64,000 nucleotides of DNA, taken from the NCBI RefSeq assembly GCF_988242995.1, contig NZ_OZ547043.1; one strand, 5' to 3'. The first letter of the stretch is position 1; each line of letters starts with the position of its first letter. This document shows positions 12,001 to 21,000 of the stretch, one piece after another. Position numbers: made by a program.

Positions 12001-15000
12001 GAAGTGGTTGCAGAGAGTATCGAACGGTTAATTATCGACGGCGTACTGAAGGTCGGTCAGCCGCTTCCCTCGGAACGTCGACTGTGTGAAAAGCTCGGCT
12101 TCTCACGCTCCGCACTGCGTGAAGGGCTGACCGTGCTGCGCGGGCGCGGGATTATTGAAACAGCGCAGGGTCGCGATTCTCGTGTCGCACGGCTTAATCG
12201 GGTGCAGGACACCAGCCCGCTAATTCATCTGTTCAGCACGCAGCCGCGAACGCTGTACGATCTGCTCGACGTTCGCGCATTGCTGGAGGGCGAATCGGCA
12301 AGGCTGGCGGCAACGCTGGGAACGCAGGCTGATTTTGTTGTGATAACCCGCTGTTATGAAAAAATGCTCGCCGCCAGTGAGAACAACAAAGAGATTTCGC
12401 TGATCGAACATGCACAGTTGGATCACGCTTTCCATCTCGCCATTTGTCAGGCTTCTCACAATCAGGTGTTGGTGTTTACGCTGCAATCATTGACCGATCT
12501 GATGTTTAATTCAGTGTTTGCCAGCGTAAATAATCTCTACCATCGACCACAGCAAAAAAAGCAGATCGATCGCCAGCATGCGCGGATCTACAACGCGGTG
12601 TTGCAGCGGCTGCCGCACGTCGCCCAGCGCGCAGCACGCGATCATGTGCGGACCGTGAAAAAGAATCTCCACGATATCGAGCTGGAAGGCCACCATTTGA
12701 TTCGCTCGGCGGTGCCGCTGGAGATGAAGCAGGGGTGACTGCCATCAAATCTGCTTTTCATACAATCGGTAACGCTTGTACGGCTCTGCCCCAATGCGTT
12801 CCAGCATGTTATTCATGCCTGTATTGGTTTCGAGGATCCATGACATTTCCAGCGCATCGATCTTCCGGCGGGCAAACGGATCGCGTAAGGCTTCAATCAA
12901 TAACAGCGCAATCACCGGGCCGATGCGGCTAAACTGATACTCGTCCCGCACGCCCATCAGCGGTACTCGCGCAGTTCGCACACCGCTGACTTTTAAACGC
13001 CACAGCAATTTTGCCCAGCCGAAGGGAAAGAGCGATCCGTTCAGATCGGCAATCGCCTCGTTGATGTTTGGCAAGCCAACAATAAACGCGCAGGGTGCAG
13101 AATCAATCTCAGCGATGTAGATCATATCGTCCGGCACCAGATATTTAAGTTGATCGCCCATAGTCGCGAATTCATGTTCGGTAAACGGCACAAATCCCCA
13201 GTTGTGCTGCCAGCCAGAGTTGAAAATCTCACGCAGGATCTGCATCTCTTCGGCAAACCGCTGGCGATTGATGCAGCGAATGGTCACCTTCTTACGCACC
13301 TGATCCATCAGTTTTTTTAGCGCCGGAGAGAAAGTGAGATCGGTTCGCTGCATCCACCACGCTAGTAAATCAATGCCTTTGTGATAACCCAATTGTTCAA
13401 TATGCGCGGCATACCACGGTTTACCGTGCGGCATCATCGCACAGGGTGGTGTATCGAAACCTTCAATCAGTAATCCGCTTTCCTGATTGATATTCAGGCT
13501 GAAAGGACCGCTGATCTTACTTGCACCTTGTGACTTCAACCACGCTTCCGCTGCGCCAAACAACGCGGCAAAAACCTGCGGATCATCAATGGCGTCAATC
13601 ATGCCGAAATGACCGGTATCTTCACCGTAACGCTCGCGGTGCAAGGTATCTATTTGCACGGTAATACGCCCAACTATCTGCCCTAATGCCGATCAGTTAA
13701 GGATCAGTTGACCGATCCAGTGGCTGTGTAAGAATCCGGAAACGCTCACTTGTTTCCGGATTTTTTTATGCACATTGGACAGGCTCTTGATCTGGTATCC
13801 CGTTACGATTCTCTGCGTAACCCACTGACTTCTCTGGGGGATTACCTCGACCCCGAACTCATCTCTCGTTGCCTTGCCGAATCAGGTACTGTAACGCTAC
13901 GCAAGCGCCGTCTTCCCCTCGAAATGATGGTCTGGTGTATTGTTGGCATGGCGCTTGAGCGTAAAGAACCTCTTCACCAGATTGTGAATCGCCTGGACAT
14001 CATGCTGCCGGGCAATCGCCCCTTCGTTGCCCCCAGTGCCGTTATTCAGGCCCGCCAGCGCCTGGGAAGTGAGGCTGTCCGCCGCGTGTTCACGAAAACA
14101 GCGCAGCTCTGGCATAACGCCACGCCGCATCCGCACTGGTGCGGCCTGACCCTGCTGGCCATCGATGGTGTGTTCTGGCGCACACCGGATACACCAGAGA
14201 ACGATGCAGCCTTCCCCCGCCAGACACATGCCGGGAACCCGGCGCTCTACCCGCAGGTCAAAATGGTCTGCCAGATGGAACTGACCAGCCATCTGCTGAC
14301 GGCTGCAGCCTTCGGCACGATGAAGAACAGCGAAAATGAGCTTGCTGAGCAACTTATAGAACAAACCGGCGATAACACTCTGACGTTAATGGATAAAGGT
14401 TATTACTCACTGGGACTGTTAAATGCCTGGAGCCTGGCGGGAGAACACCGCCACTGGATGATACCTCTCAGAAAGGGAGCGCAATATGAAGAGATCAGAA
14501 AACTGGGTAAAGGCGATCATCTGGTGAAGCTGAAAACCAGCCCGCAGGCACGAAAAAAGTGGCCGGGACTGGGAAATGAAGTGACTGCCCGCCTGCTGAC
14601 CGTGACGCGCAAAGGAAAAGTCTGCCATCTGCTGACGTCGATGACGGACGCCATGCGCTTCCCCGGAGGAGAAATGGGGGATCTGTACAGTCATCGCTGG
14701 GAAATCGAACTGGGATACAGGGAGATAAAACAGACGATGCAACGGAGCAGGCTGACGCTGAGAAGTAAAAAGCCGGAGCTTGTGGAGCAAGAGCTGTGGG
14801 GTGTCTTACTGGCTTATAATCTGGTGAGATATCAGATGATTAAAATGGCGGAACATCTGAAAGGTTACTGGCCGAATCAACTGAGTTTCTCAGAATCATG
14901 CGGAATGGTGATGAGAATGCTGATGACATTGCAGGGCGCTTCACCGGGACGTATACCGGAGCTGATGCGCGATCTTGCAAGTATGGGACAACTTGTGAAA

Positions 15001-18000: not shown

Positions 18001-21000
18001 TGGTTAAACGCCGAAACTGTACAGACGCAAACCTATGAATTATGCGATGGCGTCGCTGGCGGCTATGACTGGCAACGCGTACGACAGCTTGCCGCCGAAG
18101 CCCGTTGTGGTTCTGTGCGGATGGTTGGCATTCCTCTGCCGCTACTCACCTGCCTTGCGGATATCAGTACTGCGTTGAGTCGCCTGGCAGGTAAAGAACC
18201 TATGCTGACCCGCTCGAAAATTCGTGAATTAACCCACGCCGACTGGTCGGCAAATAATAACCGTATTTCTGAAGATATTAATTGGTTTCCCGGGATTAGC
18301 CTGGAACACGCATTACGCAACGGGCTATTTTGATTGTCTTGTTTAAAGGTGTGTTAACGTTTCTATGGTAAATCGTGAAATAGTAATGGATTACATCCTT
18401 TCCTGTTTACAGGATTTGGTCGAAAACGGTGTGGAAATTAAGCCCGACAGCGATCTCGTCAACGATCTTGGCCTGGAGTCGATCAAAGTGATGGATCTCT
18501 TAATGATGCTGGAAGACAGATTCGATATTTCCATTCCTATTAATATTCTGCTGGATGTCAAAACCCCTGCGCAATTAATGGAAACACTACTTCCATGGCT
18601 GGAGAATAAATAATGGGGCTATACGATAAATATGCGCGCCTTGCTGGCGAGCGACTGCAATTTAGTGACAACGGGTTAACACCGTTTGGCACCTGTATTG
18701 ATGAAGTGTATTCCGCCACCGAAGGTCGGATCGGCAATAAAAAAGTGATTCTGGCCGGGACCAATAATTATCTCGGTTTAACCTTTAATCATGATGCCAT
18801 CGCCGAAGGTCAGGCAGCATTAGCGGCCCAAGGCACCGGCACCACCGGTTCTCGTATGGCAAACGGCAGTTATGCGCCGCATCTGGCGTTAGAGAAAGAG
18901 ATCGCCGAGTTTTTTAATCGCCCTACCGCTATCGTTTTTTCAACCGGTTATACCGCTAATTTAGGCGTCATCAGCGCACTTGCCGACCATAACGCCGTGG
19001 TGTTACTGGATGCCGACAGCCACGCCAGTATTTATGACGCCTGTTCTCTCGGTGGCGCGGAAATTATTCGTTTCCGCCATAACGATGCTAAAGATCTGGA
19101 ACGGCGCATGGTTCGCCTCGGTGAACGGGCAAAAGAGGCGATTATCATCGTTGAAGGCATCTACAGTATGCTCGGTGACGTTGCGCCGCTGGCGGAAATT
19201 GTTGATATCAAACGTCGTCTCGGTGGTTATTTGATTGTCGATGAAGCGCATTCGTTTGGCGTGTTAGGCGCAACGGGGCGCGGACTGGCTGAAGCCGTTG
19301 GCGTTGAAGATGATGTGGATATTATCGTTGGTACTTTCAGTAAAAGTCTGGCCTCGATTGGCGGTTTTGCTGTCGGTTCGGAAGCGATGGAAGTGCTGCG
19401 CTACGGCAGCCGCCCGTATATTTTTACCGCCTCTCCTTCTCCGTCCTGCATTGCGACCGTGCGCTCGTCGTTAAGAACCATTGCTACACAACCAGAGTTG
19501 CGGCAAAAGCTGATGGATAATGCCAACCATCTGTATGACGGTCTGCAAAAACTGGGTTATGAGTTAAGTTCACATATTAGCCCGGTAGTGCCAGTAATAA
19601 TCGGTTCGAAAGAGGAAGGTTTACGCATCTGGCGCGAGCTTATTTCGCTGGGCGTTTATGTGAATCTTATCCTGCCACCTGCCGCGCCTGCAGGCATCAC
19701 GCTGCTGCGCTGTAGCGTAAACGCTGCCCACAGTCGTGAGCAAATCGATGCCATCATTCAGGCATTTGCTACTCTGAAGCAGTAATGTGAGCCCGCTGTG
19801 GTGCTGCGCCACGGCGGGTTTAATGTTGACTGTCATACCAATACACCAGGCTCAACGCCACCAGCACAAACACTATCGGTAAACCGAGCGCGGTAACAGG
19901 TGCGCTCAACGCAAATAACAATCCCAGATTGACCATGATTTGATAGCTGATCCAGGTGAGTAAGCCAACGATGACGCCTACAGCGAGACGGCTACCCATC
20001 CCTGGCGAGCGCGGGGCGCTAAAGGTAAACGGCACAGCCAGCAAAATCATCGCCAGAGTTAAGATGGGTTGCCCCAGTTTTTCCCACAGTGCAAGGCGGT
20101 AATCGCTGCTGGGTTGCCCGGTTTCCTGCAAATAATGGATGTAATGATTAAGCTGACGGACAGAAAAAGTATTCCCCGGCATCGATAACTCTTCAAGATC
20201 CATACTGGTGAAGGCCGATTGCCAGGCAAGATTATCTGATGTTTCCAGCGTTTCTTTGCCATTCAACCATTTTTTATGATTCACACCATGCAGGATCCAC
20301 GTTTTGTCGTCTTCAATGGAGGCACTGCGTGCAAAAATGTAGGATTCGAGCGAGAGATCGTCGCGATAATGAAATATCTCCACGCCCACAGGCTGGCCCT
20401 GCTCGTTCAGCGATTTCACCGTCACAAATTCATTACCGCGCCTGGCCCAAAGCATATTGCCGGTAATGTCATCGTCCTCCCCCAACGCGGTGGCAGTCGA
20501 TTTGATTTGCAGCGCCTGTTGCTGCAATGGCGACGCCACCCACTCATCTATCGCGCCTAACGAAACAGTCCACAATATCCCGGCAACCAGCGCCACCAGT
20601 GCAATACGGAAGATAGAAAACCCAGTGCTGCGAATGGCGGTAAGCTCACTGTTTTTCGATAACTGCCCCAGGCCAACAATCCCTCCCAATAATGCGATAA
20701 ACGGCGAAAGTTCGACCAGTGTACGCGGTAAGGTCATCAGCACCACCAGCACCGCCTGAGTCCAGCGATAACCACCCGGGCTGACATCATCCAGTTCGTT
20801 AATCAGGTTGAAGGTGGTAAAAAGCGGCAGCAATAGCCCTGCGGCGGCGGCAAAACCGAGAAAGAGATGACGGATTAAATAGCGACTGAAAACATTCATC
20901 GGGAAAATTTCTGCAGCAATGAGAAGTCGCGTGCGACCAGCATCAGCAGGCCCATTAGCATGAGTCCGGGTACTAACCACAAACCAGGAATGAGGGGAAT

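Follow-up and report, generated by a model that had tools for sequence, protein, structure and literature searches.

The sphingolipid locus described here lies in a 64,000-nucleotide stretch of the Escherichia coli chromosome (contig NZ_OZ547043.1 of NCBI RefSeq assembly GCF_988242995.1; the whole stretch is hereafter called the window), between glcC (11914-12738) and pitB, which is found further to the right, and very probably encodes the proteobacterial dihydroceramide pathway in its E. coli form. Its four intact plus-strand genes at 15731-19785 encode a fatty acyl-AMP ligase (AasR), an extended short-chain dehydrogenase/reductase (SDR), a small acyl carrier protein (ACP) named AcpR, and a serine palmitoyltransferase (Spt), and divergent from them is yghO, which belongs to the family of bacterial ceramide synthases (bCerS). 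The locus is the sphingolipid locus of E. coli BL21(DE3) in another strain: the two have in common the site between glcC and pitB, the gene order, and proteins that are 96-100% identical, while yghO, which is uninterrupted in BL21(DE3), is split by an IS4 element in the window. The closest match to the region was found in an E. coli O158:H23 strain, with 99.1% identity. The original prediction, made from the nucleotide sequence of the window, was that the locus makes a sphingoid base or a ceramide-type lipid, and this was borne out by the family models, by the fold of YghO, and by published biochemistry on near-identical proteins. The core finding is not new, because a publication of 2022 already covers the locus with its five genes and characterizes three of the proteins biochemically, and the sequence-only reading is a correct rediscovery of what was already known.

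Padilla-Gomez et al. described the genes ECD_02850-ECD_02854 of BL21(DE3) as yghO/aca, aasR, epi, acpR, and spt (PMC9386255). In that study, E. coli AcpR was found to carry 4'-phosphopantetheine, AasR to acylate its cognate AcpR, and Spt to prefer acyl-AcpR to acyl-CoA when forming 3-oxo-sphinganine, yielding from L-[14C]serine and palmitoyl-AcpR a product that co-migrated with 3-oxo-sphinganine; ECD_02852 was proposed to be the reductase and ECD_02850 was regarded as a putative N-acyltransferase (PMC9386255). The statement in the original prediction that no function had been characterized for the locus in E. coli is, therefore, obsolete: in addition to that work, which characterized AcpR, AasR, and Spt, RefSeq annotates the last gene as "spt: serine palmitoyltransferase", and PDB entry 3pbk is the crystal structure of the AasR orthologue. 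The proteins encoded in the window are 98% (AasR vs ECD_02851, with a one-residue indel), 96.1% (SDR vs ECD_02852), 100% (AcpR vs ECD_02853), and 99.5% (Spt vs ECD_02854) identical to those of BL21(DE3). The features of the core locus are as follows (ORF, open reading frame; IS, insertion sequence).

12745-13683, minus strand: C-terminal part of yghO (bCerS/aca), separated from its start by IS4
13684-15109, plus strand: IS4 element, 1426 bp, with the transposase ORF at 13750-15096
15110-15326, minus strand: N-terminal part of yghO, an ORF of 77 residues; annotated starts at 15326 or 15308
15327-15730, no strand assigned: 404-bp spacer between the divergent genes yghO and aasR, 31% GC; presumed promoter/regulatory region
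15731-17422, plus strand: aasR, fatty acyl-AMP ligase/specialized acyl-ACP synthetase; the start may also lie upstream, at 15698 or 15671
17419-18333, plus strand: epi/cerR, extended SDR reductase, NDUFA9-like, with GxxGxxG and YxxxK motifs
18365-18613, plus strand: acpR, dedicated ACP of 82 residues, the stop codon overlapping the spt start
18613-19785, plus strand: spt, serine palmitoyltransferase of 390 residues, identified with NF047599 and SPT structures in the PDB

Enzymes encoded by the aasR-spt operon

The four plus-strand genes had been described in the original prediction as translationally coupled, which is only roughly right. All four ORFs are present, and an ATGA overlap joins aasR to the SDR gene (17419-17422) as a TAATG overlap joins acpR to spt (18611-18615), but the SDR and ACP genes are spaced by 31 nucleotides without overlap, and therefore two of the three junctions agree with the description. 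The motifs that had been quoted were all present at the expected positions, namely, YTSGSTRFPRGV (16238-16273), GWLDTGDLGY (17006-17035), and SSGKPAR (17333-17353) in aasR, GATGFIG (17443-17463) and YANSK (17782-17796) in the SDR gene, and DEAHSFG (19240-19260) and GTFSKSLASIGG (19330-19365) in spt. The spacer between yghO and aasR has a GC content of 31% against a window mean of 52%, and such an AT-rich control region is a plausible target of xenogeneic silencing.

The assignment of Spt is carried by curated hidden Markov models (HMMs) and by solved structures. The protein scored 600.1 bits with the Spt equivalog model NF047599, the cut-off of which is 500 bits, while its scores with the models of other alpha-oxoamine synthases all fell below their cut-offs (BioF, 334 vs 426 bits; Kbl, 298 vs 460; HemA, 220 vs 339; CqsA type, 221 vs 428). 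Its nearest solved structures are the SPTs of Sphingomonas paucimobilis and S. wittichii (2jg2 and 2x8u), which were matched with 374-377 bits over residues 3-385 (E 8e-112, approximately 1e-111), as compared with approximately 204 bits for Kbl and at most 182 bits for BioF among the other PDB entries. H137, D210, H213, K244, and R366 of Spt align with H159, D231, H234, K265, and R390 of 2jg2, respectively, so that the catalytic residues and the lysine binding pyridoxal 5'-phosphate (PLP) are kept. Motifs such as DEAHS and GTFSKS occur in all alpha-oxoamine synthases and would equally be expected if the PLP enzyme were a spare BioF or Kbl paralogue of biotin or threonine metabolism and its neighbors were unrelated genes of fatty acid metabolism. 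That reading is, however, refuted by the curated-model scores and by the PDB ranking, in which the SPTs stand approximately 170 bits above both Kbl and BioF, and the inclusion in the operon of a dedicated ACP and a fatty acyl-AMP ligase (FAAL) also argues against it; the probability that we would still assign to it is vanishingly small.

AasR is a member of the FAAL family, with a score of 870 bits for the model NF006624 (cut-off 600) as opposed to 101 bits for the FadD acyl-CoA ligase model (cut-off 884). The family check by curated HMMs was, thus, passed with the FAAL and Spt models and failed with those of BioF, Kbl, HemA, and CqsA. AasR matches 3pbk over its full length with 1264 bits; this E. 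coli structure was deposited simply under the name of fatty acyl-adenylate ligase, and the partner ACP and a role in sphingolipid synthesis were assigned to the enzyme later (PMC9386255). The SDR, whose top relatives in the PDB are NDUFA9-type subunits, is of the extended type and is encoded between aasR and acpR in the spt operon. These matches agree with the description of Caulobacter CerR as NDUFA9-like by the Klein laboratory, and the E. coli protein is likely a CerR-type 3-keto reductase by analogy. As for AcpR, the ACP models matched it with scores below their cut-offs, but it is a small phosphopantetheine-binding protein, encoded directly upstream of spt, that is distinct from the housekeeping AcpP.

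The interrupted putative ceramide synthase gene and the proposed pathway

The ceramide synthase gene is inactivated in the window strain by IS4. The element, whose transposase matched the IS4-family model NF033592 with 299 bits and whose terminal inverted repeats agree at 17 of 20 positions, breaks yghO after approximately codon 72; on either side of it stands one copy (13671-13683 and 15110-15122) of the duplicated 13-bp target, CAACTATCTGCCC. When IS4 and one of the duplicates are removed, i.e., when 12745-13683 is joined to 15123-15326, an ORF of 380 residues is restored, the product of which is 99.5% identical to YghO of BL21(DE3). The window thus holds a pseudogene of the bCerS family in place of an intact coding sequence. 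A query spanning the left junction of IS4 was covered by at least 80% in none of the 5426 complete E. coli genomes, BL21 being likewise devoid of the element, and the insertion is therefore private to the window strain.

The original prediction had called yghO divergent and acyltransferase-like. The divergent orientation is as predicted, but the gene is split, and the acyltransferase character of its product cannot be read with Pfam from the sequence: a Pfam scan of the reconstructed protein returned no match even at E <= 10, no NCBIfam model matched YghO itself, and a PDB sequence search with YghO alone gave noise. YghO belongs to a large family of 6417 representatives (clustered at 50% identity, E <= 1e-3), 13 of 99 members of which matched the Gcn5-related N-acetyltransferase (GNAT) model PF00583, and a PDB search with the profile of the family gave GNAT matches that were weak. 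Because these searches gave either no match or weak ones, a structure model was needed. The AlphaFold (AF2) model computed from an alignment of 99 sequences, with a predicted local distance difference test (pLDDT) score of 97 and a predicted template modeling (pTM) score of 0.93, was compared with the PDB using Foldseek, and the best matches were all tandem-GNAT acyltransferases (E from 8e-16 to 1e-9), in the order of 2wpw (E 8e-16), 5kf1, 7q3a, MshD, Eis, and FemX. As modeled, therefore, YghO has the tandem-GNAT acyltransferase fold that is expected of a bCerS. Neither of the sequence-level outcomes that would have spoken against the original prediction, a PLP enzyme of the BioF or Kbl group and a YghO lacking such a fold, was thus observed. 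Published values for its BL21(DE3) counterpart, ECD_02850, against Caulobacter crescentus CC_1154 are 44% identity, an E value of 1e-107, and 98% coverage (PMC9386255).

From these assignments, the following pathway can be considered for an intact locus. AasR would adenylate a free long-chain fatty acid and load the acyl group onto the phosphopantetheine arm of AcpR, and Spt, with PLP as its cofactor, would condense acyl-AcpR with L-serine, accompanied by decarboxylation, to give 3-oxo-sphinganine; these two steps have been shown for the near-identical BL21(DE3) proteins. For the remaining two steps, the Caulobacter homologues serve as a guide: YghO would, like bCerS, N-acylate the long-chain base, and the 3-keto group would be reduced by the NDUFA9-like SDR in the manner of CerR. 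The Geiger and Klein groups disagree on which of the two reactions comes first. The product would then probably be moved outward by the LptF2/LptG2 paralogues encoded next to spt. In the window strain, the IS4 insertion in yghO would block N-acylation, and the pathway should stop before ceramide. With that step knocked out, the strain is therefore not expected to get beyond a free long-chain base of the 3-oxo-sphinganine/sphinganine stage. The IS4 allele is, in other words, a natural bCerS knockout, and it could help to settle the order of the two disputed steps.

Retention, possible silence, and product of the locus

Several points weigh against the view that the locus is a dihydroceramide pathway at work in E. 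coli. What the reductase and YghO do in E. coli has been judged from homology and from spots in thin-layer chromatography that migrated like sphinganine and ceramide (PMC9386255). In BL21(DE3) with empty vectors, 3-oxo-sphinganine was detected neither in vivo nor in extracts (PMC9386255), and no sphingolipid from unmodified E. coli has been reported in the literature. Scans of 15250-19900 for promoters and terminators gave hits at chance level (seven vs 6.0 expected and six vs 5.9 expected, respectively). Moreover, Caulobacter was outside the 80 loci retrieved in the neighborhood survey described below, and the identities between the E. coli and Caulobacter proteins (Spt, 53%; bCerS, 44%; AasR, 42%; AcpR, 41%; CerR, 34%; supplementary table of PMC9386255) are published values only. 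A last point of this kind concerns the substrate of the PLP enzyme and is taken up at the end of this section.

Because the empty-vector strain showed no 3-oxo-sphinganine, the native operon may be silent in the laboratory, and this observation, together with the AT-rich control region, makes a silent or conditional locus a live rival explanation. In its strongest form, the island would be a cryptic, decaying relic, whose enzymes are competent when overexpressed while the native locus is transcriptionally silent, is being lost piecemeal, and gives no lipid in the cell, least of all in the window strain. A control region with a GC content of 31% is of the type that is often silenced by H-NS, which would suit such a relic, as would the IS4 insertion in yghO of the window, the absence of most of the operon from approximately one-fourth of the complete E. 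coli genomes, and the state of the locus in K-12. In the K-12 strain TG1 (6075-11855 of the retrieved locus, L008), yghO is followed by IS5, yghQ without its C terminus, yghR, yghS, and yghT. The loss at IS5 extends from aasR through the gene of a 274-residue protein to the 3' end of yghQ, so that the core of the island is gone. Because of this IS5-associated deletion, the K-12 genes yghO, yghQ, yghR, yghS, and yghT can be recognized as relics of the island.

Other observations, however, argue against simple decay. The operon is covered by at least 80%, with 95-99% identity, in 4059 of the 5426 complete genomes, none of the other island ORFs of the window is shortened in comparison with BL21, and the gene set persists in Enterobacterales despite several rearrangements. 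The IS4 junction, found in none of the complete genomes, marks a recent private event and not a trend. Retention, full-length ORFs, and a conserved gene set together argue for purifying selection and, therefore, for use of the island under some condition. We thus regard a relic without any lipid product as unlikely, at a probability that still deserves attention, and favor a functional dihydroceramide-type pathway that might be expressed conditionally. That the operon is kept in approximately three-fourths of the complete genomes, yet no native sphingolipid has been reported, makes it a testable question when, or whether, E. coli makes such lipids, and in other gut bacteria, sphingolipids are immunologically active.

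Another possibility is that the alpha-oxoamine synthase uses an amino acid or acyl donor different from those of SPT and gives a nonsphingoid product, such as an alpha-hydroxyketone of the CAI-1 type, a cysteate-derived precursor of sulfonolipids, or an N-acyl amine. The enzyme family is mechanistically versatile, and cysteate-C-fatty acyltransferase and CAI-1 synthase were matched in the PDB with 207 and 124 bits, respectively. In addition, although the catalytic residues are common to the Sphingomonas SPTs and the Spt of the window, the latter has Leu at the position of R378 of S. paucimobilis SPT (2jg2), and this arginine, a residue implicated in binding the carboxyl group of serine, is not conserved in the E. 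coli enzyme. This difference also has to be counted among the points against a sphingoid product. On the other side, Spt passed its equivalog model while scoring 221 bits against a cut-off of 428 for the CqsA type, the 99.5%-identical BL21 enzyme made the 3-oxo-sphinganine-like product from L-[14C]serine and palmitoyl-AcpR, and linkage with homologues of bCerS, CerR, and LptF2/LptG2 fits sphingolipid loci. A nonsphingoid product, therefore, seems highly improbable, and the dihydroceramide-type assignment is retained in the comparison below.

Neighboring genes and comparison with known sphingolipid loci

Downstream of spt, the island continues with a pair of LptG/LptF permease paralogues and a block of candidate accessory genes, the last of which precedes pitB.

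19820-20899, minus strand: lptG paralogue (LptG2); TIGR04408, 307 bits
20896-21966, minus strand: lptF paralogue (LptF2); TIGR04407, 318 bits
21997-22560, minus strand: YtfJ-family protein, candidate accessory; TIGR01626, 212 bits
22569-23393, minus strand: 274-residue all-alpha protein with a weak CHAD-like fold (AF2 and Foldseek), candidate accessory
23393-24742, minus strand: yghQ, MOP/Polysacc_synt flippase-like membrane protein, candidate accessory; NF007773, E 6e-9
24788-25546, minus strand: yghR, P-loop kinase-like, paralogue of yghS
25578-26291, minus strand: yghS, P-loop kinase-like, paralogue of yghR
26465-27157, plus strand: yghT, third P-loop kinase-like paralogue, closing the island ahead of pitB

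The 274-residue protein had no family match in HMM searches; its AF2 model (pLDDT 91.7) is an all-alpha bundle whose best Foldseek matches, all of them weak, are CHAD domains (top match 6qv5, E 0.058). The flippase-like nature of YghQ is also seen in its Serratia orthologue, which matches PF01943 of Pfam. YghR, YghS, and YghT are mutually paralogous and are distant relatives of thymidylate kinases; they were rejected as true thymidylate kinases, because their scores of 25-31 bits lie below the cut-off of 83 and their matches to Tmk structures are only distant. A scan of YghO and the accessory proteins with models of anti-phage defense gave nothing meaningful, and a reading as a defense system was dropped.

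The conservation of this neighborhood was surveyed with one genome per species, using an alignment of 15 YghO sequences, and the best 80 loci were retrieved. In 74 of them, spt/aasR and/or lptF2/lptG2 were found within 10 kb of the YghO homologue, and of the six loci without such linkage, five are short contigs and one is a second copy of yghO in Shimwellia. The latter, from Shimwellia pseudoproteus, is a paralogue with 74% identity that lies on another contig (L021) with no sphingolipid genes within 10 kb. An lptF2/lptG2-type pair was present in 50 of the 80 loci. Of 17 loci from Enterobacterales, 13 have ytfJ, the gene of the 274-residue protein, yghQ, and yghR/S/T next to the ceramide genes, and the linkage persists through at least four gene orders and differing chromosomal contexts; in Serratia, the whole accessory block is inverted relative to spt. 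The accessory genes were also found in one betaproteobacterial metagenome-assembled genome (L064), and within the survey they were absent from the loci of Pseudomonas, Nitrosomonas, and Nitrospira. In Serratia liquefaciens and Pantoea cypripedii (L004, L006, and L007), a DgkA-type gene (PF01219) encoding 120 residues directly follows yghO, which may bear on the phosphorylation of the head group; E. coli has no such gene after yghO, which glcC abuts.

Literature searches on yghO and yghQRST yielded no paper linking yghQRST to sphingolipids, and a broader search on enterobacterial sphingolipids returned nothing relevant. The link between yghQRST and sphingolipids, suggested by synteny only, is possibly the one new point of this study, and the conservation of yghQRST, the CHAD-like gene, and ytfJ would supply a functional hypothesis for y-genes of K-12 that have long stood without one.

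Among known systems, the comparison with C. crescentus is the most informative. There, aasR (CC_1165), cerR (CC_1164), acpR (CC_1163), spt (CC_1162), and bcerS (CC_1154) share one neighborhood with LptF2/LptG2 (CC_1156/CC_1155), and the same five enzyme families with LptF/LptG paralogues are gathered in E. coli. In Sphingomonadaceae, a long distance separates aasR from acpR-spt (PMC9386255). The LptF2/LptG2 pair of the window adjoins spt and exists besides the housekeeping lptFG; no extra lptB or lptC is found beside it, and the island is without the lptC2 of Caulobacter. LptF2/G2 in the sphingolipid locus of Caulobacter have been proposed to be sphingolipid exporters (PMC11324152), and a preprint of April 2026 has provided experimental support for their role in sphingolipid transport in Caulobacter and has reported lptF2/G2 in many alphaproteobacterial and gammaproteobacterial sphingolipid loci. 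The adjacent pair in E. coli matches these transporters, a case already known in kind, and by analogy with Caulobacter, the organism in which transport was shown, it may play the same part.

The two systems differ in the genes that are likely to act on the head group. Caulobacter makes ceramide phosphoglycerate (CPG) with a CDP-alcohol transferase, a DAGK-type ceramide kinase, a Tam41-like protein, and nucleotidyltransferases, and HMM scans found none of the CPG head-group families among the 13 genes of the E. coli island, which has instead ytfJ, the CHAD-like protein, yghQ, and the three P-loop kinase-like paralogues. The locus of Pseudomonas sp. Root562 (L026), by contrast, is of the Caulobacter type in this respect, with a CDP-alcohol transferase, a YegS-type lipid kinase, a phosphoesterase, a nucleotidyltransferase, and an MsbA-like ABC protein in place of the E. 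coli-type accessory genes. The accessory neighbors, therefore, point to head-group chemistry unlike that of Caulobacter. We tentatively suggest, at somewhat less than even likelihood, that the island of Enterobacterales is a distinct variant of the pathway, in which YghQ, YghR/S/T, the CHAD-like protein, and YtfJ replace the phosphoglycerate genes of Caulobacter to make and export a previously undescribed, possibly phosphorylated sphingolipid, and of which yghO, yghQ, yghR, yghS, and yghT of K-12 would be the relics.

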